Virus record (IMG/VR): IMGVR_UViG_2778261463_000008
Location: 1-8,853 of that record
Reading direction: 5' to 3' (one strand)
Source: a virus
Taxonomy: Duplodnaviria > Heunggongvirae > Uroviricota > Caudoviricetes
DNA length: 8,853 nucleotides
Shown: one piece after another, positions 1 to 8,853 of the stretch
How positions within the stretch are numbered: position 1 is the stretch's first letter
How the letters are laid out: every line of letters starts with the position of its first letter
Program-made: the position numbers and the translations under genes
The notes under the pieces: generated by a model
Seen by the model: only the letters and a program-made list of their open reading frames with translations
Databases searched by the model: none
Told to the model about the DNA's origin: nothing

Positions 1-48
1 CTTCCTAATACAAGAACTACGCAATCCGTTACTGGCGGAGGCGTTGCT

Positions 49-264
49 ATGAAATCCATGGATAAGATAACAACGGGTGTCGCCTATGGCACCTCGGCAG
101 GCAGTGCCGGGTACTGGTTTTTGCAGTGGATTGATCAGGTTAGTCCGTCACAGTGGGCTGCTATTGGTGTGCTGGGGAGTCTGGCACTGGGCTTTCTGAC
201 TTATCTGACGAATCTGTACTTCAAGATAAAAGAGGACCGTCGCAAGGCGGCGCGGGGAGAGTAA
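49..264 (+). CDS. S: Class II holin (pinholin), phage 21 S-type, 71 aa
   Basis: Protein [27 protein letters not shown]... matches my recollection of the phage 21 S holin nearly residue for residue. Dual-start motif Met1-Lys-Ser-Met4 is present (antiholin/holin pair). Two transmembrane segments and a basic C-terminus ([11 protein letters not shown]). GGCGGAGG ribosome-binding site 8-15 nt upstream. Confidence 0.9.
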
Positions 265-268
265 TTCA

Positions 269-742
269 ATGGAACATAATAATGAAAAATCCAGAGAGCA
301 CTCTGGAAACAGCAAACATTATTCCATTGCTCATTCATTCGGCGGCTTTCGTGATGTAGTCGGACAGGGTGCTGAGAGAGAACAGGAGAGTAATACAATG
401 ACTCAAAACCATGAACTGGTTGTTAAAGGAACCCGAAATTTTGAGAATAAAATTGCGGTGATTTTAACCCTGCGTGACAAAAAGCGTTTTGCCGGTGAGA
501 TATTTGACTTACACATCAACCTTGAACGACAGGAAGGCGCCACTCTGGAGTTTTATGAGTCAGAGGCAATAAAACGGGCAAAGACATTGTTCCGGGATGT
601 TGCTGCAGGGTTATGTGAAGGGGACGAGCTGTCGCCGGAAAAGCGCCCCATAATTTTAGAGGCGCAGAATGTGTGGATAACCTACAAAGGAAAGCTACCG
701 GGAAGAATTACTGGTTCTCTGAAGACTCCGCCGAAATGGTAA
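269..742 (+). CDS. Hypothetical protein, 157 aa, inserted between holin and endolysin (alternative start ATG 398 gives 114 aa)
   Basis: Open frame starting 5 nt after the holin stop, with GGGGAGAG upstream. An internal ATG at 398 has its own AGGAGAG site 7 nt upstream. The product is soluble and charged, with no transmembrane segment and no motif I recognise. The first ~43 residues are low complexity, so the 398 start may be the real one. Confidence 0.45.
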   Translation: MEHNNEKSREHSGNSKHYSIAHSFGGFRDVVGQGAEREQESNTMTQNHELVVKGTRNFENKIAVILTLRDKKRFAGEIFDLHINLERQEGATLEFYESEAIKRAKTLFRDVAAGLCEGDELSPEKRPIILEAQNVWITYKGKLPGRITGSLKTPPKW

Positions 743-980
743 TTTCACCAGCATATTTTTCTTCCAGTAATGCCGCCAGCCACTTGAAAGAATTTTGTTG
801 TTCCTGGGACCATTTGGGGTTGCGTGACTCAAGCAGAAGCGATGCCAGTGTTGGTTGCATTTGTTCTCTGGGAATTGAGAAGGCCAGATATGAAAATGCA
901 ACAGTGAGGGCATTTACATCATCCCGAAGCCTGGAAATGCAGTCGAGCAACTCCTGTAGAGAAATGGTGCTATTGTCCAT
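708..980 (-). CDS. Hypothetical protein, 90 aa, antisense to the late operon and convergent with the preceding ORF
   Basis: Minus-strand ORF starting at ATG 980-978, with GGAGAGG 7 nt upstream. Product (MDNSTISLQELLDCISRLRDDVNAL...) looks like a helical soluble protein. The + strand frame over the same DNA (673..1005) is Ser/Cys-rich and looks non-coding. Its 3' end overlaps the 3' end of 269..742 by 35 bp. Confidence 0.4.
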   Translation of the reverse strand: MDNSTISLQELLDCISRLRDDVNALTVAFSYLAFSIPREQMQPTLASLLLESRNPKWSQEQQNSFKWLAALLEEKYAGEITISAESSENQ

Positions 981-1085
981 AAACAATCCTCTCCATTGTA
1001 TTTAACTATTCCTTGCCTGATTCAACAGGCCGGGACAGATAAACATATCCAGGGTTCAGAAACCGATAAATCCTGATAAATATCC

Positions 1086-1619
1086 ATGAACGCAAAAATC
1101 AGATACGGCCTGTCGGCTGCCGTTCTGGCACTGATTGCCGTCGGTGCGCCCGCGCCTGATATTCTCGACCAGTTTCTGGATGAAAAAGAAGGTAACCACA
1201 CAACGGCATACCGCGATGGTTCCGGTATATGGACCATCTGTCGTGGTGCCACAATGGTGGATGGTAAGCCCGTCATACCGGGAATGAAGCTGTCGAAGGA
1301 AAAATGCGACCAGGTTAACGCTATTGAACGTGATAAGGCACTGGCATGGGTGGAGCGCAATATTAAAGTACCTCTGACCGAACCACAGAAAGCGGGTATT
1401 GCGTCATTCTGTCCCTATAACATTGGCCCCGGTAAGTGTTTCCCGTCGACGTTTTATAAGCGGCTTAATGCCGGTGATCGAAAAGGCGCCTGCGAGGCGA
1501 TTCGCTGGTGGATAAAGGATGGTGGGCGCGATTGCCGCATACGTTCAAATAACTGCTATGGACAGGTTATTCGTCGTGACCAGGAAAGCGCATTAGCCTG
1601 TTGGGGGATAGATCAGTGA
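1086..1619 (+). CDS. R: SAR endolysin (T4-lysozyme-like, GH24 family; phage 21 R / P1 Lyz type)
   Basis: N-terminal Gly/Ala-rich weakly hydrophobic signal-anchor-release segment ([19 protein letters not shown]). Catalytic triad spacing E...D...T in FLDEKEG / YRDGSG / IWTICRG. Sits where the endolysin is expected, upstream of Rz/Rz1. Confidence 0.9.
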
Positions 1620-2083
1620 GCAGAGTCGCCGCGATTATTTATGCTCTGGTTATCTGCATCATCGTCTGCCTGTCGTGGGCGGTCAATCATTACCGTGATA
1701 ACGCCATCGCCTACAAAGAACAGCGAGATAAAAAAGTCAGTGAGCTGAAGCAGGCGACCGCCACCATTACTGACATGCAGCAACGCCAGCGTGCTGCTGA
1801 TGTACTCGATGCTAAATACACGAAGGAGTTGGCTGATGCGAAAGCTGAAAATGATGCTCTTCGGCGCAAGCTTGATAATGGTGGTCGGGTGCTCGTCAAA
1901 GGAAAATGCTCTGTGCCATCCTCAGCCGAAACCTCCAGCGCCTCCGGCATGGGCAATGATGCCACCGTCGAACTCTCTCCAGTTGCTGGACGAAACGTTC
2001 TCGGTATCCGGGACGGAATTATCCGCGACCAAACAGCACTGAGAACGCTTCAGGAATATATCAGGACGCAATGCCTTCGATGA
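1616..2083 (+). CDS. Rz: i-spanin Rz (inner-membrane spanin subunit)
   Basis: GTG start overlapping the endolysin stop (GTGA). N-terminus [34 protein letters not shown] closely resembles lambda Rz as I recall it. One N-terminal transmembrane segment followed by a coiled-coil periplasmic domain. The ORF track extends to a TTG at 1601, which I consider less likely. Confidence 0.85.
1836..2042 (+). CDS. Rz1: o-spanin Rz1 (outer-membrane lipoprotein), embedded in the +1 frame of Rz
   Basis: ATG at 1836 with AAGGAG 7 nt upstream. Signal peptide with lipobox VVGC. Pro-rich mature region ([16 protein letters not shown]) comparable to lambda Rz1. Lies entirely inside Rz. Confidence 0.8.
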
Positions 2084-2223
2084 TAGCGATAATTTTACTC
2101 ATCATCCTTCACATTTGGCTCTGTAGACAGGGTGGTGATCACTTCTGGAGTGAATCCAGATTAAACATCTCATTGCTGATGCTTGAAGTTGAGCATCTGG
2201 CGCGCGGTAAGGGGCTGCGTTGA
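2080..2223 (+). CDS. Possible small membrane peptide, 47 aa
   Basis: ATG overlaps the Rz stop (ATGA), suggesting translational coupling. Product [47 protein letters not shown] has a hydrophobic N-terminal helix. A terminator hairpin lies ~35 nt downstream. No clear ribosome-binding site and many rare codons, so confidence is low. Confidence 0.25.
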
Positions 2224-2257
2224 AATAAGAGCCAGTCATTAAAAATACCTGGATTTA

Positions 2258-2283
2258 GCCTCGCATTCGCGGGGCTTTTTATT
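2258..2283 (+). terminator. Rho-independent terminator (7-bp GC-rich stem, loop ATTC, T5 tract)
   Basis: GCCTCGC-ATTC-GCGGGGC followed by TTTTTATT, read directly from the sequence. Confidence 0.45.
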
Positions 2284-2292
2284 GCCATTACA

Positions 2293-2318
2293 AAAGCCAC
2301 TCCCTACAGAGTGGCTTT
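2293..2318 (-). terminator. Perfect 10-bp inverted-repeat hairpin, possibly a minus-strand or bidirectional terminator
   Basis: AAAGCCACTC-CCTACA-GAGTGGCTTT. On the minus strand it is followed by a short T run. It sits back-to-back with the + strand terminator, between convergent small ORFs. Confidence 0.3.
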
Positions 2319-2364
2319 GATAATGGCTTATACCCTACACGGGATAACTTAACTGATATCCCTT

Positions 2365-2541
2365 TTAACGGATAAAGGTATTCAAGCCTGACACATCATG
2401 CGCTGTATCGTCGCCGTATTCCCGTATTAACAGAGACCGTAGCCCGACGGGGAACTCCTTCTGCGCGAGTGTGCGGGAATAATCAAAAACGATGCACACC
2501 GGGTTTTTACCGCGTTTATGGTTCGCGGGTTTGTCCCTCAT
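2365..2541 (-). CDS. Possible small protein, 58 aa
   Basis: Minus-strand ORF translated by hand: MRDKPANHKRGKNPVCIVFDYSRTLRQKEFPVGLRSLLIREYGDDTAHDVSGLNTFIR. Weak ribosome-binding site. Followed on the minus strand by the 2293-2318 hairpin. Occupies the position that bor-type accessory genes take between Rz and cos in lambda. Confidence 0.25.
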   Translation of the reverse strand: MRDKPANHKRGKNPVCIVFDYSRTLAQKEFPVGLRSLLIREYGDDTAHDVSGLNTFIR

Positions 2542-2708
2542 GCTCGCCAGTCCTGTGCGGGGGTGGAAGAAACAGGATACTCACACAGATTCTTGTGGGC
2601 ACGATGCTATTCCTTTCTGGATTATCCCGATGCCATTCATGCAAGGCGCTGTATCAGACGTTCGTCATGGCTGTCAGGCTGACGGGTCCTCCCGGTGGGG
2701 TGGCCTGC

Positions 2709-2907
2709 CACGGGGCGGGAGCGTCGCGGAAAAAGGCTGGTTTTTGCATTTCCATGGCGGCGGCAGCATGTTTGGTAATTTATTGATAATTAAAAGTTAT
2801 TTCTCTTTTTACCTGTACAATATTTTTTCTCCCTGTCATTAGACCAGTTTGCAATTAATTGAAATATATAAATAAACATGATTTTCATCTGCCAGATGGA
2901 GTTGCTT
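2709..2907. other. cos site: cosN-like nicking region (~2711-2729) plus AT-rich cosB-like region up to the small terminase start
   Basis: ACGGGGCGGGAGCGTCGCGG resembles the lambda cosN region ACGGGGCGGCGACCTCGCGGG as I recall it. It lies ~190 bp upstream of the small terminase start, the same spacing as cosN to Nu1 in lambda. An AT-rich stretch with IHF-like sequence follows. Predicted 12-nt cohesive end GGGCGGGAGCGT at 2713-2724. Confidence 0.5.
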
Positions 2908-3444
2908 ATGTCAAATGTGAGCGGGATCGGTGATGCTTATTACTGGAGTGTTTTTAAAATCGCTGAGGCCTTTGGGCTTCACCGGGACACAGTAAAAAAA
3001 CGGCTCCTCGCGGCCAACACTCCTGTGGCTGCGACTGTCAGGGGGAACCCCGTTTACGCCCTGCAGCATGTCGGGCCAGCCCTGTTTAGTGTGAAGCATG
3101 AGGCAGCAGACTCTGTTCATGATCCATCCCGTATGGAGCCGAAAGAGAGAAAGGACTGGTACCAGTCTGAAAATGAAAGGATCAAGCTGGAAAAGGAGCA
3201 GCGAAAACTCATCCCCGTTGATGAAGTAGTCATCGTCTATTCGTCCATGAGAAAGGCTGTCGTCCAGGTTCTGGAGACAATTCCGGATGTTCTTGAACGC
3301 GATTGCGCCCTGACTCCTCAGGCCGTCGGCGTTGTACAGCAGGCCATTGATGACCTGCGATACACTCTTCAGGAAAAATCCTACGAGGCTTGTGCTGCTG
3401 AATTAATTCCTGATGAGGAAGGAGAGAGTCTCCAGGAGGAATAA
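2908..3444 (+). CDS. Terminase small subunit (lambda Nu1-like)
   Basis: Immediately downstream of cos and upstream of the large subunit; its stop TAA is directly followed by the large-subunit ATG. N-terminal helix-turn-helix-like region, acidic C-terminus. GGAG 7 nt upstream of ATG 2908. The ATG at 2878 listed in the track has no ribosome-binding site. Confidence 0.8.
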   Translation: MSNVSGIGDAYYWSVFKIAEAFGLHRDTVKKRLLAANTPVAATVRGNPVYALQHVGPALFSVKHEAADSVHDPSRMEPKERKDWYQSENERIKLEKEQRKLIPVDEVVIVYSSMRKAVVQVLETIPDVLERDCALTPQAVGVVQQAIDDLRYTLQEKSYEACAAELIPDEEGESLQEE

Positions 3445-5543
3445 TGGGTTTTTCATCAGCGCGAAATTTGGGAAGGGACATATCGGCAGGATTTTCCCCA
3501 CCACGTCGCATGCCGATTTCGGAGGCTGTTAAAAAATTCATGCGTGTTCCCAAGGGGGCTGGTAACTCGGTGCCATGGGATCCTGAACTGACACCCTACA
3601 TCATTGAGCCCATGAACTGCCTGGCATCGCGTGAATACGATGCGGTGATTTTTGTTGGTCCTGCGCGAACAGGGAAGACCATTGGTCTGATCGATGGATG
3701 GATTGTCTATACCATCGTTTGCGATCCTTCGGACATGCTCGTTGTGCAGATGACCGAAGATAAGGCCCGCGAGCATTCTAAAAAGCGCCTCGACAGAACG
3801 TTCAGAAGCAGTGCGGCGGTAAAGAAAAGAATGAGTCCACGTCGTAACGACAATAATGTCCATGATAAGACGTTCAGGGATGGCTCGTTCCTTAAAATTG
3901 GTTGGCCCTCGGTCAACATTATGTCGTCGTCGGATTACCGGTTTGTCGCCTTAACCGATTACGACCGTTTTCCGGAGAATATCGACAGCGAGGGTGATGG
4001 TTTCTCCCTGGCCTCAAAACGTACCACCACATTTATGTCCGCCGGGATGACTCTGGTGGAGAGCTCGCCGGGACGTGACATCTGCGACAGCAAATGGCGA
4101 CGTAAGTCGCCTCATGAAGCGCCACCGACGACTGGTATTCTTTCCCTTTACAATCGTGGTGACCGCCGCCGCTGGTACTGGCCATGTCCGCACTGCGGTG
4201 AATATTTTCAGCCAGCCATGGATGCCATGACCGGCTACCGTAATGAACCGGATCCCTTTAAAGCCAGTGAGGCGACGTATCTACTTTGCCCGCACTGCAG
4301 CGGCATTATCACTGCGGAGAAAAAGCGTGAGCTCAATAGTGCAGGAGTCTGGTTACGTGAAGGTCAGGTCATTGATCGTAACGGCAACGTTTCCGGTGAA
4401 CCGCGCCGCTCCCGTATCGCCAGTTTCTGGATGGAAGGGCCAGCTGCTGCGTATGAGACCTGGGCGCAACTGGTTTACAAATTACTGACTGCAGAACAGG
4501 AGTATGAAGCGACAGGAAGCGAAGAAACACTCAGGGCGGTTATCAACACCGACTGGGGATTGCCTTATCTTCCCCGCGCCAGCATGGAGCAACGAAAAAG
4601 TGAACTGCTTGAGCAGCGGGCAGAGCCAGTTCCTTCACGCAGTGTGCCGGATGGCGTTAATTTCCTTGTGGCGACAGTGGATGTGCAGGCGGGACGTCAT
4701 CGCCGTTTTGTGGTTCAGGTAACGGGCTATGGCAGTCGTGGCGAACGCTGGATTATTGATCGTTACAACATCACGCAGTCATTGCGCGGTGACAGCGACG
4801 GGGAGAGCCAGCGAATTGATCCGGCCAGCTATCCGGAAGACTGGGATGTCCTGCTGACGGATGTTTTTCATAAAAGCTGGCCGCTGGCCTCCGATCCTTC
4901 TCAACAAATGCGACTGATGGCAATGGCGGTGGACTCCGGCGGTGAAGACGGGGTCACTGATAATGCCTATAAATTCTGGCGTCGTTGCCGTCGTGATGGA
5001 CTTGGTAAAAGTATTTACCTGTTTAAGGGCGACAGCATCCGGCGAGCAAAACTGATCACCCGTACATTCCCTGATAACACCGGACGAACGGGCCGACGGG
5101 CGCAGGCCGCAGGTGATGTGCCACTCTGGCTTCTTCAGACGGATGCCCTGAAAGACCGGGTTAATAATGCGTTATGGCGTGATTCACCGGGTCCCGGCTA
5201 TGTGCATTTTCCTGACTGGCTGGGGAGCTGGTTTTACGACGAACTGACGTATGAAGAGCGGAGCAGTGACGGAAAGTGGAGCAAACCAGGGCGGGGGGCT
5301 AACGAAGCCTTTGACCTGATGGTGTATGCCGAGGCTCTGGTCATTCTGCATGGTTACGAGAAAATTCAGTGGCCGGATGCGCCGGAATGGGCATGCAGGG
5401 AAACCTGGCTGGAGTGCGTCAGTGATAACACTGAGCAACCTGTTCTGCCGGAGCCAGTGCTCCAGCCGGACAGAAAAAAGAAACGAAAAAAAACGGTACC
5501 CGATGAGGAAAATCCCTGGGTGACTTCCGGAGGATGGTTATGA
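3444..5543 (+). CDS. Terminase large subunit (lambda gpA family)
   Basis: 699 aa. Walker A motif VGPARTGKT (nt 3657-3680). Two CPHC motifs (WPCPHCGEYF and LCPHCSG) as in lambda gpA. AGGAGG ribosome-binding site 4-5 nt upstream. Lys-rich C-terminus. Confidence 0.92.
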   Translation: MGFSSARNLGRDISAGFSPPRRMPISEAVKKFMRVPKGAGNSVPWDPELTPYIIEPMNCLASREYDAVIFVGPARTGKTIGLIDGWIVYTIVCDPSDMLVVQMTEDKAREHSKKRLDRTFRSSAAVKKRMSPRRNDNNVHDKTFRDGSFLKIGWPSVNIMSSSDYRFVALTDYDRFPENIDSEGDGFSLASKRTTTFMSAGMTLVESSPGRDICDSKWRRKSPHEAPPTTGILSLYNRGDRRRWYWPCPHCGEYFQPAMDAMTGYRNEPDPFKASEATYLLCPHCSGIITAEKKRELNSAGVWLREGQVIDRNGNVSGEPRRSRIASFWMEGPAAAYETWAQLVYKLLTAEQEYEATGSEETLRAVINTDWGLPYLPRASMEQRKSELLEQRAEPVPSRSVPDGVNFLVATVDVQAGRHRRFVVQVTGYGSRGERWIIDRYNITQSLRGDSDGESQRIDPASYPEDWDVLLTDVFHKSWPLASDPSQQMRLMAMAVDSGGEDGVTDNAYKFWRRCRRDGLGKSIYLFKGDSIRRAKLITRTFPDNTGRTGRRAQAAGDVPLWLLQTDALKDRVNNALWRDSPGPGYVHFPDWLGSWFYDELTYEERSSDGKWSKPGRGANEAFDLMVYAEALVILHGYEKIQWPDAPEWACRETWLECVSDNTEQPVLPEPVLQPDRKKKRKKTVPDEENPWVTSGGWL

Positions 5544-5752
5544 ACCAGAATGATATTGAAGCCATGATCCAGCGTTATATCGATGCGGAAATGGCAGTTC
5601 TGGACGGAAAATCCGTCACTTTTAATGGTCAGCAGATGACCATGGAAAATCTGTCCGAGATCCGACGGGGGCGTCAGGAGTGGGAGCGGCGTCTTGCTGC
5701 CATGACTGCGCGGCGACGGGGGGATCCGGGATATAAACTGGCGAGGTTCTGA
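5540..5752 (+). CDS. Head-tail joining protein (lambda gpW-like), 70 aa
   Basis: Small ORF between terminase and portal. ATG overlaps the terminase stop (ATGA), with GGAGG 6 nt upstream. Its stop overlaps the portal ATG (TGATG). Size and position match lambda gpW. The ATG at 5534 is an alternative start. Confidence 0.75.
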   Translation: MNQNDIEAMIQRYIDAEMAVLDGKSVTFNGQQMTMENLSEIRRGRQEWERRLAAMTARRRGDPGYKLARF

Positions 5753-6657
5753 TGGCAATTCTGGATGATGTGATTGGTGCTTTTTCACCAGGCTGGAAAG
5801 CTGCGAGGTTGCGGTCAAGAGCATTAATTCAGGCCTATGAGGCAGTGAAACCTACCCGCACACACAAAGCCCGACGGGAAAACCGTTCTGCCGACCAGCT
5901 CAGTAAGTACGGGGCGGTATCCCTGCGGGAGCAGGCCCGTTTTCTGGATATCAATCATGACCTTGTCATCGGTGCTTTCGACAAGCTTGAGGAGCGGGTG
6001 ATTGGCGCAAAAGGGATCATTGTTGAACCCCAGCCATTACTGAAAAACGGTGATATGGCTACAGACCTGGCAATGATTATCCGTCGTTTGTGGGCGGAAT
6101 GGTCTGTCAGCCCGGATGTGACCGGGCAGCATACGCGCCCCATGCTCGAGCGTTTGTTGCTGCGTACCTGGTTACGTGATGGTGAAGTGTTTGCCCAGAT
6201 GGTCAGTGGTGCAGGGGCCGGACTGGTGCGGACTGCCGGCGTGCCTTTCTGGCTCGAGGCAATGGAGCCGGATTTTGTACCCATGTTCAGTGATGAGTCT
6301 GCGGGAATGAATCAGGGGGTTTTTCTGGATGAGTGGGGCAGGCCGAAAAAATACCTGGTTTATAAAAATTATCCGGTCACCGGGCGACAGAGTGATACCA
6401 AAGAGATCGCCGCTGAAAATATGGTGCATCTGAAGTTTACCCGCCGGCTGCATCAGACGCGTGGCACATCCATGTTGTCAGGTGTGCTGATGCGGATCAG
6501 CGCGCTTAAGGAATATGAAGATTCCGAGCTGACAGCGGCGCGCATTGCTGCAGCACTGGGGCTGTATATCCGTAAAGGAGACGGGCAGGATTATGAGGCC
6601 CCCGTTCTTCCCATTCTCCTGACAGTTACCGAGTCCATACGGGAACACACAGACTGA
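5752..6657 (+). CDS. Portal protein (lambda gpB family), N-terminal fragment, disrupted at ~6613
   Basis: Aligns with recalled lambda gpB through a shared ...QTRG... block up to ...EAPVLP (residue 287, nt 6612). The last 14 codons (ILLTVTESIREHTD) and the stop are non-homologous read-through into the junction. The portal C-terminal half is found on the opposite strand at ~8200-8807. Confidence 0.85.
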   Translation: MAILDDVIGAFSPGWKAARLRSRALIQAYEAVKPTRTHKARRENRSADQLSKYGAVSLREQARFLDINHDLVIGAFDKLEERVIGAKGIIVEPQPLLKNGDMATDLAMIIRRLWAEWSVSPDVTGQHTRPMLERLLLRTWLRDGEVFAQMVSGAGAGLVRTAGVPFWLEAMEPDFVPMFSDESAGMNQGVFLDEWGRPKKYLVYKNYPVTGRQSDTKEIAAENMVHLKFTRRLHQTRGTSMLSGVLMRISALKEYEDSELTAARIAAALGLYIRKGDGQDYEAPVLPILLTVTESIREHTD

Positions 6658-6667
6658 AAGGGGGGCA

Positions 6668-7138
6668 TCATGAACCACCCCGATCGCCTTTTTCGCCCTT
6701 CGGCCCCTGAGGTCCTGCCGGGCCACGCTCACCTGTATCACCCTTTGGCCCCTGAGGTCCCGGCTCTCCCTTTTCTCCTCTCGGGCCCGTGTCCCCCTTT
6801 TCTCCCCTGGCACCACCAAAGTTAATCCTGACAGCGACGACATCACTCCCGGTACCAGCCTCTTCCCAGACAACCCCGACCAGCGGATCAGAGCCGCTGT
6901 TAGTCAGCTGAACTTTTCCGGACTTCAGATAAACCTTCTTACCCGTTTTCATATCATCCGTTTTCAGCTTAGGCAGCATAAACACACCTTCGGTCATGCC
7001 GTCGCCTGTTTCACCCTGTGGAATATCGGTCAGCGCCACCGCAAAAACATCACCCACCTGCACCAGATCTCCGCTGCTGATGGCTGCACTGGCAACAATC
7101 GCCACCGTTTTTCCTTCTTCTACAAAATTCTTTGCCAT
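6668..7138 (-). CDS. Head decoration-like protein (DUF2190 family) with C-terminal collagen-like Gly-X-Y repeat tail, 156 aa
   Basis: ATG at 7138 with GGAGA 7 nt upstream. N-terminal ~110 aa ([30 protein letters not shown]...[15 protein letters not shown]) matches the DUF2190 pattern. The C-terminal ~45 aa is uninterrupted G-X-Y ([43 protein letters not shown]). Confidence 0.8.
6696..6760. repeat. Direct repeat of a 45-bp unit inside the collagen-like coding region
   Basis: CCCTTCGGCCCCTGAGGTCC (6696-6715) and CCCTTTGGCCCCTGAGGTCC (6741-6760) are 19/20 identical and 45 bp apart, which is five G-X-Y triplets. Confidence 0.7.
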
Positions 7139-7185
7139 AACTGTCTCCACACAGCCCCGTTCAGGGGCTGATTTCAGGTACAAAA

Positions 7186-7204
7186 AAAGCCCTTACGGGC
7201 CATC
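7186..7204 (-). terminator. Weak Rho-independent terminator or attenuator after the 521-aa ORF
   Basis: On the minus strand: GGCCC-GTAA-GGGCT (5-bp stem including one G-U pair) followed by TTTTTTTG. It sits between the stop of 7225..8790 and the start of the decoration gene. A second 7-bp hairpin (CAGCCCC-GTTCA-GGGGCTG, 7152-7170) has no T tract. Confidence 0.3.
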
Positions 7205-7224
7205 AGAGTTGTTGTCTGCGATGT

Positions 7225-8790
7225 TTACGCCGTACATTTCACCAGACCGCGGTGATCAACTGGCGCGACACCGGCGTCAATACGCACTTTCGTTGTCACG
7301 CCATCCACACTGAACCCCTCCATCTGATCAATATATGGCGTATCCACACCGTTGAGATAAGCCACTTCAATCGTATCGGAGCCTTTTGACGCAGCCAGGT
7401 AGAAGGTGGTCTGGCTGTTATCATCAAGACGAGGCTCTGCAATAACGGTCGCAAAATCTTTCACCGGGTTAATAATACCGGCGTTAATGTCAGCCCCCTT
7501 GACACTTGAGGAGCGAATGACCTGGTTAGCAACAGACTCCATCGCCGTCGGTACCAGTACGAACGCAGGACGAATATTCAGATGACGCTCCCCCTCTTTC
7601 TGAACGCGCATCAACTGGCGGGCTTTATCCAGCGATGCCACGTCCATTGCAGCGCTCTCCAGTACGTTTGCATGTTTCGCTTTATCGAACAGACTTACAT
7701 TATCTGTGGAGATTTTCGGGTTAGACGTCAGAATGGCATAAACCAGATCGGCAATAGTGGATTTCGCCGCACGGCCCAGTTTCATCGGGACATCGGTCAG
7801 CATATTCAGATCATCATTGATAATGGCCTGACGGGTGATACTGAACAGCTCGCCATAGGTCGCCAGTGCAATAGTGGCCTGTTTATCTCCGGTGGTGATG
7901 TATTTATATTCCGCCCCTTCACGCACCTGACGCAGAGCACTGAAGCCCCCCATACCCACACGATGAGCAATTTTAAAATCAGACAACTGACCTTTCCGCG
8001 TCCACTGTTCATAGGTTTCAGGGGCATCTTCCCAGCCCTGCAGAATGGCTTTGTTCGCAACATCCAGCAGAATATTACCGAAGTCAGACGTACTGTGTGT
8101 GAACGCCGCACCGACCATCTGCATCGGGTTATAACCGGAAACCCCAATACCCCGTTCAGTCAGTGACATACGGGCATATTCACGCAGGGTCATCCCGTTG
8201 TAGACATTATCACGTTCGGTTTTTTCAAATCCGGCACGCGCCATCAGCGCCTGGCGGATCCCGTCCCCCACAAAATTACCGTTACGACCACCTGCACGTA
8301 CCCAGTCTGATTCTGTCGCCGCTCCACCACGAATCTGAATTTTCCAGGCTTCAGCTTCCTTGACAGGATCAATCCACGGCATGACCGGACCAGAATAGGT
8401 TGCGTTATATAGTGTTTTCATATCCACATCCGACGTAATTTTCAGCAATCCCGCGGCCACAACCATATTCAGCCATGCCCGGTACACCGGACGGGTTACA
8501 GCACCAATAAAACAGTCCTGCAGGATCAGATAACCATCTGTGGACTCAACCAGCTCCTGTCGCTGGGCACTGTAGGTACCGTTATAATTACGTGCTGCAC
8601 TGGAAAAACTCAGACGTGTGCCCGCCGCCACGGCCCGCAACTGACCATTACGAAAAGTTTCCAGGTTAGTGTTAGGCCGATCAGATTTGACCATGCCGAT
8701 ATCTTCCCCCTTACGCAGATCGTCATAAATAATTCCGGGTGTGATATGCAGTTCCCGATCATTATCTTTATTCGTCACGGCAAGGTGCAC
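7225..8790 (-). CDS. Portal protein C-terminal half fused in frame to a ~320-aa head-morphogenesis domain (protease/scaffold or capsid-like); 521 aa
   Basis: Residues ~1-190 align with the recalled C-terminal region of lambda gpB, with consistent spacing across several blocks (FRNGQLRAVAAGTRLSFSSAARNY, WIDPVKEAEAWKIQIRGGAATE, IRQALMARAG). No stop codon and no internal ribosome-binding site before the downstream ~320 aa. The annotated start is a GTG directly after an in-frame TAA at 8806-8808; there is no ATG until codon 33, so this is an internal gene fragment, not a native start. Confidence 0.75.
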   Translation of the reverse strand: MHLAVTNKDNDRELHITPGIIYDDLRKGEDIGMVKSDRPNTNLETFRNGQLRAVAAGTRLSFSSAARNYNGTYSAQRQELVESTDGYLILQDCFIGAVTRPVYRAWLNMVVAAGLLKITSDVDMKTLYNATYSGPVMPWIDPVKEAEAWKIQIRGGAATESDWVRAGGRNGNFVGDGIRQALMARAGFEKTERDNVYNGMTLREYARMSLTERGIGVSGYNPMQMVGAAFTHSTSDFGNILLDVANKAILQGWEDAPETYEQWTRKGQLSDFKIAHRVGMGGFSALRQVREGAEYKYITTGDKQATIALATYGELFSITRQAIINDDLNMLTDVPMKLGRAAKSTIADLVYAILTSNPKISTDNVSLFDKAKHANVLESAAMDVASLDKARQLMRVQKEGERHLNIRPAFVLVPTAMESVANQVIRSSSVKGADINAGIINPVKDFATVIAEPRLDDNSQTTFYLAASKGSDTIEVAYLNGVDTPYIDQMEGFSVDGVTTKVRIDAGVAPVDHRGLVKCTA

Positions 8791-8853
8791 CTTACTCCGG
8801 CTCAGTTATCCATGCTTCTTGAAGGTATCAACTGGAAGCACCCGAAACGAACG

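Follow-up and report, generated by a model that had tools for sequence, protein, structure and literature searches.

We analyzed an 8,853-nucleotide stretch of a Caudoviricetes virus (IMG/VR record IMGVR_UViG_2778261463_000008, positions 1 to 8,853; hereafter, the window), and in particular the 820 bp that separate its pinholin gene from its endolysin gene. Two small genes lie there: ydfR on the + strand and, on the - strand, a gene that we call X. The two genes converge, with 35 bp shared by their 3' ends. A first-pass annotation of the window, made from the sequence alone, had described these two open reading frames (ORFs), their ribosome-binding sites, the overlap, and the lower GC content of positions 265 to 1085, and all of this holds. 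The difference in GC content is modest: 0.42 to 0.49 over 265 to 1085, versus 0.50 to 0.55 in the flanks. The features of the region, in order, are as follows.

49 to 264, + strand: pinholin of the S21 type, a class II holin (PF04971, 2.3e-35, 121 bits; relatives carry the annotation class II holin/EssD)
269 to 397, + strand: rare in-frame insert of 129 bp at the 5' end of ydfR, between direct repeats
398 to 742, + strand: ydfR (DUF1327), 114 amino acids, with an alternative start at 269 (PF07041; Shine-Dalgarno sequence GGAGAG at 385 to 390)
708 to 742, both strands: convergent 3' overlap of ydfR and X, 35 bp, read from the sequence
980 to 708, - strand: gene X, 90 amino acids (PHROG 2411; Shine-Dalgarno sequence GGAGAGG, the reverse complement of 988 to 994)
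about 748 to 1020, no strand: block of about 273 bp that is present with X and absent without it, from DNA alignment against a relative that lacks X (L006)
981 to 1085, no strand: spacer between X and the endolysin gene, with the Shine-Dalgarno sequence of X (988 to 994 in + numbering), a hairpin at 1015 to 1030, and a conserved leader ahead of the endolysin ATG
1086 to 1619, + strand: phage lysozyme (endolysin), probably of the signal-arrest-release type, judging from its hydrophobic N-terminus (PF00959, 1.2e-24)
1601 to 2083, + strand: Rz spanin (PF03245 and PF06085), with Rz1 embedded in the ORF at 1791 to 2042

The + strand gene belongs to a family that is already known. Its product matches DUF1327 (PF07041) at E = 1.1e-30 (106.2 bits, where the cutoff is 25) across positions 1 to 92 of the 93 in the profile, and it also matches phrog_406 and phrog_2091. 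RefSeq, using the Prokaryotic Genome Annotation Pipeline (PGAP), labels the 114-amino-acid form that starts at 398 as "YdfR family protein." Thus, of the two products that the first-pass annotation could not recognize, one is YdfR; the other, X, does lack a Pfam family or a nuclease signature. The position of ydfR is not unusual either. In the Qin prophage of Escherichia coli K-12, the gene order is essQ-ydfR-rrrQ-rzpQ, with ydfR (b1555) between an S21-type holin and a lysozyme, so a gene in this position is standard in E. coli prophages. The same order is found in loci L001 to L007 and in 80 IMG/VR loci. Of 5426 complete E. coli genomes, 3151 (about 58%) contain DNA for the C-terminal half of the window's ydfR allele, at 6703 places in all. 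The expectation that holin and endolysin genes are normally adjacent is therefore not supported. In relatives, ydfR starts 4 nt past the stop codon of the holin, which implies that it is part of the late operon.

In an AlphaFold2 (AF2) model of YdfR, residues 1 to 73 form three strands and a helix, with a predicted local distance difference test (pLDDT) of 66 to 87, and residues 75 to 114 score below 50. Residues ~70 to 114 make up a basic C-terminal tail module, which is conserved yet predicted to be disordered, and which ends in ...GRITGSLKTPPKW. YdfR alleles differ past about residue 70: there is a K-12 type, there are long types of 176 to 183 amino acids, and there is the type that is found in the window. 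YdfR from K-12 (103 amino acids) has the same essQ/rrrQ-type position, but it has only residues 1 to 69 in common with the window's allele; its C-terminus is unrelated and overlaps the start of rrrQ, and there is no X gene beside it. The window's YdfR differs by its ITGSLKTPPKW tail module and by the option of a rare 43-codon extension. Tails of the window type read ...ITGSLKTPP, followed by KW and a stop codon if X is present or by ESQP and a stop codon if X is absent; the variants diverge after KTPP. The N-terminal half of ydfR is much more diverged among prophages than the C-terminal half (proportions of synonymous differences, or pS, of 0.19 and 0.11), with an equal ratio of nonsynonymous to synonymous substitution rates (dN/dS); for YdfR, dN/dS is 0.38. 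Also, in IMG/VR loci of the E. coli type, X is 92 to 98% identical to the window's X, but the adjacent YdfR is just 73 to 84% identical. The high identity of X beside a diverged N-terminal half of YdfR indicates mosaic recombination inside ydfR. A profile search of YdfR against PDB sequences gave no match.

In the literature that we found, functional data for YdfR come from a single study, published in 2026. Residues 1 to 72 of K-12 YdfR are reported to bind the N-terminal, catalytic half of RNase E, as seen by two-hybrid assay and by copurification, and RNA copurifies with the protein (PMC13232886). Its effect on the transcriptome is small, and its overproduction is not toxic and causes no growth defect; this K-12 allele does not have the tail (PMC13232886).

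For the - strand frame at 980 to 708, comparisons among sequences indicate a real protein-coding gene that is under purifying selection. The alternative is that it is just the antisense shadow of a + strand frame at 673 to 1005. Because the two frames share their third codon positions, each can remain open alongside the other, and dN/dS is blind to the strand: it is 0.33 for X and a similar 0.27 for the + strand frame. The coding strand is settled by stop codons and by distant homologs. Across 26 unique E. coli alleles, the frame of X is intact in 23, while the + strand frame contains stop codons in 9. Homologs of X from other genera are gap free, with lengths of 81 to 106 amino acids and 25 to 45% identity. 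X is also annotated by PGAP and has a confident AF2 fold. We consider the shadow explanation to be effectively refuted, and the view of the first-pass annotation that both frames are genes is borne out.

The homologs were found with an exhaustive profile search and with a second, word-based search, and they are from Serratia, Sodalis, Chania, Gibbsiella, Chimaeribacter, and Acerihabitans, as well as from Citrobacter (at 60% identity). The family has the motif AFSYLAFS...E....L.SL..ES.N. X matches PHROG 2411 at 6.1e-58 over residues 1 to 90 of 90. The homologs from Citrobacter and from locus L104 match this profile as well. X is acidic, with an isoelectric point (pI) of 4.4 (4.4 to 5.5 across the family), and its AF2 model (pLDDT of 82) has helices at residues 8 to 34, 38 to 52, and 59 to 77; the tail at 81 to 90, which is the part that overlaps ydfR, is disordered. 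All annotations of X read "hypothetical protein," and our literature search turned up nothing on it. It has no match in Pfam, NCBIfam, or PADLOC, and for PADLOC, neither X nor YdfR has a match at E <= 1. When 41 members of the X family were scanned against Pfam, only scattered hits below threshold appeared, such as DUF7423 at 18.7 bits, where the cutoff is 27. In profile searches against PDB sequences, nothing was significant (YibL was at E = 0.31). The fold and profile searches yielded no informative relative. Direct comparisons with hhalign to BssS from Serratia and to the IraM-like protein of phages gave probabilities below 0.1%. As for expression, a consensus scan identified neither a sigma-70 promoter nor a terminator for X. 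With relaxed settings, the best promoter candidate was TTGAAT-19 nt-TACAAT, which has 9 of 12 matches and a nonoptimal spacer. Inspection by eye showed no LexA box upstream of X, and no known RNA family matched in Rfam.

We conclude that X and a tail of about 25 codons on a late gene are inherited as a unit. In the late regions of lambdoid prophages, the two genes make up an accessory module that is conserved. The intact prophage copies of X that we examined are from E. coli, two Citrobacter species, and two metagenomic contigs. In every one of them, an ORF on the late strand converges on X, overlaps its 3' end, and has a tail of the form ...[KR][IL][TI]G[SD][LI]..P.... These tails align with one another.

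E. coli (the window): partner of 114 amino acids (YdfR), C-terminus ...KGKLPGRITGSLKTPPKW, overlap of 35 nt
C. freundii (L088): partner of 63 amino acids, MTLEQRVEILER...NEKITGSLRAPIKL (ends EKITGSLRAPIKL), overlap of 14 nt
C. meridianamericanus (L186): partner of 238 amino acids, ...NEKITGSLRVPMKL (ends EKITGSLRVPMKL), overlap of 14 nt
L187: partner of at least 61 amino acids, cut by IS110, ...SNRIIGSLITPPEL (tail NRIIGSLITPPEL), overlap of 20 nt
L104: partner of 62 amino acids, MTLEQIVSHLEK...YKRLTGDILIPLES (ends KRLTGDILIPLES), overlap of 20 nt

In the window, the overlap at 708 to 742 encodes the last 11 codons of X (its disordered tail) together with the last 11 codons and the stop codon of ydfR (ITGSLKTPPKW). 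The equivalent overlaps are 11 to 20 nt in the prophage copies from Citrobacter and metagenomes. We considered whether the 35-bp overlap might be an artifact of the junction, with X reading into ydfR, and dropped this idea because the same tail and overlap are present in those other prophages. In Citrobacter, X stops earlier, yet the reading frame of the tail is still conserved; therefore, the constraint is on the tail of the partner and not on the end of X.

All 80 IMG/VR loci of the E. coli type have the order S-ydfR-X (antisense)-R with identical spacing. Elsewhere, what surrounds the pair varies. The N-terminal part of the partner is exchanged. In E. coli the module separates holin from lysozyme, but in Citrobacter it is upstream of the holin; in C. 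freundii L088, this is a different holin. The lysis cassettes near the pair include a pinholin with a lysozyme, Phage_holin_2_3 with a lysozyme, and, in L186, a holin of the lambda S type with a CHAP endolysin. X from L104 is 39% identical to the window's X, and its partner begins with MTLEQ, as does the partner in C. freundii. A search with the partner protein found three more loci, all close to the C. freundii type, and X is adjacent in the two that reach far enough. The N-terminal domain of the 238-amino-acid partner from C. meridianamericanus is similar to DUF1327 at E values of 0.01 to 0.09, which is suggestive only. As to charge, the partner tails are basic in three of four cases, and the X proteins are acidic. 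In the literature that we searched, the combination of X with this tail appears to be unreported.

The module also has hairpins nearby. At 4927 to 4950 of L088, between X and the holin, lies a hairpin with an 8-bp stem, CGCCAGTG-GTAGGA-CACTGGCG, with equivalents in L186, L187, and L104. It is 55 to 75 nt upstream of X, and two of its stem positions show compensatory changes among the four sequences; it has no match in Rfam. Copies from E. coli carry GCCTG-ATTCAA-CAGGC in its place, within the spacer between X and the endolysin gene (1015 to 1030 in the window).

X is less widespread than the tail. It is found at 1354 places in 1221 of the 5426 complete E. coli genomes (about 22%), including BL21(DE3), whose Rac remnant has the order essD-ydfR-X-rrrQ (ECD_RS07130 to ECD_RS07145). 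About 80% of the places in E. coli genomes with the tail module of ydfR do not have X. When we aligned the DNA of the window, L002, L005, and L007 with that of L006, the X block was absent from L006, with divergence from position ~734 on; L006 and L005 have the same holin protein (WP_000284510.1) and closely related lysozymes. X is thus a block that is present or absent in otherwise collinear relatives, as is expected for a moron, and the region is accessory and variable among related prophages, as had been proposed. In the late regions of prophages, X is always antisense to the late operon. Other accessory genes in this neighborhood are antisense as well: ompC in L002 and the gene for an IraM-like anti-adaptor in phage phiSTEC1575-Stx2k. 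In that phage (L100, 1569 to 4176), S-ydfR-X is followed by a second lysis set of a different kind, with two holins and an M15 peptidase, that replaces the lysozyme, and the antisense anti-adaptor gene lies between stx2 and the holin.

X also occurs outside of prophages. In Serratia marcescens, S. rubidaea, and Chimaeribacter, it lies on the chromosome in the order pyrC-dinI-X-bssS-solA, and it has other fixed chromosomal contexts in Sodalis ligni and in metagenomic taxa. E. coli K-12 has no X at its dinI-bssS locus. In three of the loci from Serratia and Chimaeribacter (L091, L093, and L095), the order extends to rne-ABM-pyrC-dinI-X-bssS-solA, with an intrinsic terminator after dinI, and X appears to be monocistronic. 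In a neighbor-joining tree, X of the prophage type lies apart from a large chromosomal clade of the Serratia type, although the resolution is limited by the ~75 aligned residues. In Serratia, Sodalis, and their allies, the relatives of X are normal residents of the chromosome, so X was likely captured from a host gene. Finally, a diverged variant of X (~74% nucleotide identity) occurs without ydfR in IS-rich islands and plasmids of E. coli, next to iha (adhesin/siderophore receptor) or to an autotransporter gene, as in the following two cases, both among remnants of insertion sequences.

L191 (E. coli GF60), 2946 to 3218: diverged X
L004 (plasmid p-1122), 3971 to 4225: diverged X, frameshifted at its start, with only a vestige of the partner tail

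The 820 bp between the holin and endolysin genes are therefore not the single insertion that the first-pass annotation envisaged, but a nested set of three layers, namely ydfR, the block that holds X, and the rare 129-bp insert. The insert (269 to 397) is present in only 3 of the 5426 E. coli genomes. A junction alignment and a repeat search showed that it is flanked by direct repeats at 256 to 286 and 385 to 415 (a spacing of 129). The repeat duplicates the Shine-Dalgarno sequence and the ATG of ydfR, which accounts for the alternative start at 269 and gives the window's YdfR the option of an N-terminal extension of 43 codons. Part of the insert resembles the C-terminal extension of a 263-amino-acid variant of YdfR from Stx1a phages (76% identity over 62 nt). 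The insert also contains a terminator-like hairpin on the - strand, at 307 to 290, which could stop transcripts from the X strand ahead of the holin gene.

What does X do? We tentatively favor the reading that X is a protein-binding partner of the YdfR-type tail, with the binding, the timing of expression, and the physiological effect all inferred. X would be made from a weak promoter of its own that does not depend on late transcription, and the lysogen is the likeliest setting for this. X would act by binding to another protein, and its likeliest target would be the conserved tail of YdfR-type late proteins. This tail might be the prophage's own, in which case leaky expression would be damped, or it might belong to a related, superinfecting phage. 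Binding would then modulate the late activity of YdfR, whether in the handling of RNase E or RNA or in lysis. Several observations argue for such a coupling: the pair persists down to 39% identity of X while its surroundings are exchanged, the short partner that begins with MTLEQ is conserved, and X and the tail mostly carry charges of opposite sign. The reported binding of RNase E by the N-terminal domain of K-12 YdfR lends other support. YdfR would also resemble the phage modulators of RNase E, namely Dip from phiKZ, gp0.7 from T7, and Srd from T4, in that K-12 YdfR is a late phage protein for which binding to RNase E has been reported (PMC13232886).

A more specific proposal goes further. 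X and the YdfR-type tail might be a new regulatory protein pair of lambdoid prophages, in which X, derived from the host and made in the lysogen, captures the tail and so blocks or retargets a late protein that binds RNase E or RNA, be it from the prophage itself or from a superinfecting relative, and thereby controls the timing of lysis or excludes related phages. We consider this version unlikely. For the roles in lysis timing or superinfection exclusion that were first suggested, the evidence speaks neither for nor against.

Six points weigh against the binding of the tail by X. First, X is dispensable for YdfR, as the tail module is present at 6703 places in 3151 genomes, versus 1354 places in 1221 genomes for X. 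Second, the chromosomal homologs in Serratia, Chimaeribacter, Sodalis, and others have no convergent partner. Third, neither do the diverged copies in islands and plasmids have ydfR. Fourth, the scan for a consensus promoter or terminator for X came up empty. Fifth, with basic tails in just three of four cases, the complementarity of charge is not universal. Sixth, linkage alone could keep the pair together, as recombination cannot easily part two genes that overlap.

The last of these points is central to a close rival, which we rate as possible but somewhat doubtful: X might be an independent moron, that is, a lysogenic-conversion gene like bor of phage lambda, with a host-derived, regulator-like product that acts on a host target and has no tie to ydfR. 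On that account, X was inserted once beside ydfR, and the overlap of the 3' ends then prevented their separation. Its presence or absence in otherwise collinear prophages is as expected for a moron, and so are its location on the opposite strand and its somewhat lower GC content. The chromosomal homologs, which stand alone in at least three syntenic contexts, the other antisense accessory genes nearby (ompC and the IraM-like gene), and the many tail modules without X also fit. What a moron does not readily explain is that the frame of the partner's tail stays open and conserved in five divergent contexts where all else around it has been exchanged, or that the short MTLEQ partner is conserved beside alleles of X that are only 36 to 39% identical to each other. 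A moron should also have its own promoter and terminator, which our consensus scan did not find.

X does resemble the bor and lom morons of lambda in its small size, its strand (opposite to the late operon), its patchy presence, its slightly lower GC content, and its location near the lysis genes. lambda bor is expressed in lysogens. X differs in being a soluble, acidic, helical protein rather than a lipoprotein or an outer-membrane protein, and in that, within prophages, it is always linked to a specific tail on a late gene; also, the consensus scan found neither a promoter nor a terminator of its own. The IraM-like anti-adaptor of Stx phages is another parallel, as it is similar to X in size (~100 amino acids), in its chromosomal homologs, and in its antisense position. 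In phiSTEC1575-Stx2k, a phage that has S-ydfR-X too, its gene is immediately upstream of the holin gene, but the two proteins share no sequence or profile similarity.

The overlap of the 3' ends raises another possibility, that the RNA matters and not the protein. Transcription of the X strand, or the 3' end of the X mRNA, would regulate ydfR and the lysis genes in cis, by transcriptional interference or by duplex-directed decay, and thereby tune the timing of lysis. An overlap of 11 to 35 nt is conserved, our scan found no terminator between ydfR and X, and the operon to which X is antisense is strongly transcribed. However, X clearly encodes a protein, with purifying selection and distant protein homologs, and neither the length nor the sequence of the overlap is conserved on the side of X. 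Given also the lack of a match to an Rfam family, and that our scans did not establish a promoter, we think that regulation by antisense RNA is improbable.

Similarly, we doubt very much that the pair is a toxin with its antidote or an antiphage defense (abortive infection) system, as was first suggested. A two-gene module that is kept together in mobile elements, with small products of opposite charge, in a variable accessory region of prophages that is a usual site for cargo, could be taken as such a system. But neither protein has a match in PADLOC or contains a toxin or nuclease domain. The convergent layout is unlike the codirectional operons of type II toxin-antitoxin systems, and neither protein belongs to a toxin or antitoxin family in Pfam, NCBIfam, or PADLOC. 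In type I systems, the toxin is a hydrophobic peptide that is paired with an antisense RNA, but YdfR and X are both soluble and conserved, with no match in Rfam. The type I loci txpA/RatA and bsrG/SR4 from Bacillus subtilis, like ydfR/X, consist of convergent units in prophages whose 3' ends overlap; they pair a noncoding RNA with a small hydrophobic toxin peptide, whereas ydfR and X both encode conserved soluble proteins that are not known to be toxic. In addition, each gene is often found without the other, with X standing alone in chromosomes, and overproduction of YdfR from K-12 (the allele without the tail) caused no growth defect (PMC13232886).

Farther along the window, the head-gene region (5752 to 8790) is rearranged. 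Positions 3 to 252 of the portal model from the lambda family are encoded on the + strand (5752 to 6657), while positions 273 to 354 form the N-terminus of a - strand ORF (8790 to 7225), in fusion with a Phage_capsid_4 domain. The - strand also encodes a collagen-repeat cement protein (7183 to 6668). This arrangement resembles an inversion with one breakpoint inside the portal gene, or a misassembly. If the rearrangement is real, then the prophage is probably defective.

Overall, ydfR/X is a widespread accessory module rather than an artifact or an exotic system. A ydfR with this tail lies beside prophage lysis genes in about 58% of complete E. coli genomes, and X is present in about 22%. Despite its conservation across Enterobacterales, X is outside of the families in Pfam and NCBIfam. 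If X does not interact with the tail of YdfR, then X is one more uncharacterized gene of lysogeny. If it does, then the interaction would provide a first handle on the late role of YdfR, for which there is so far one report, of its link to RNase E (PMC13232886), and it would show how a host protein, once captured, serves prophages in the control of YdfR.

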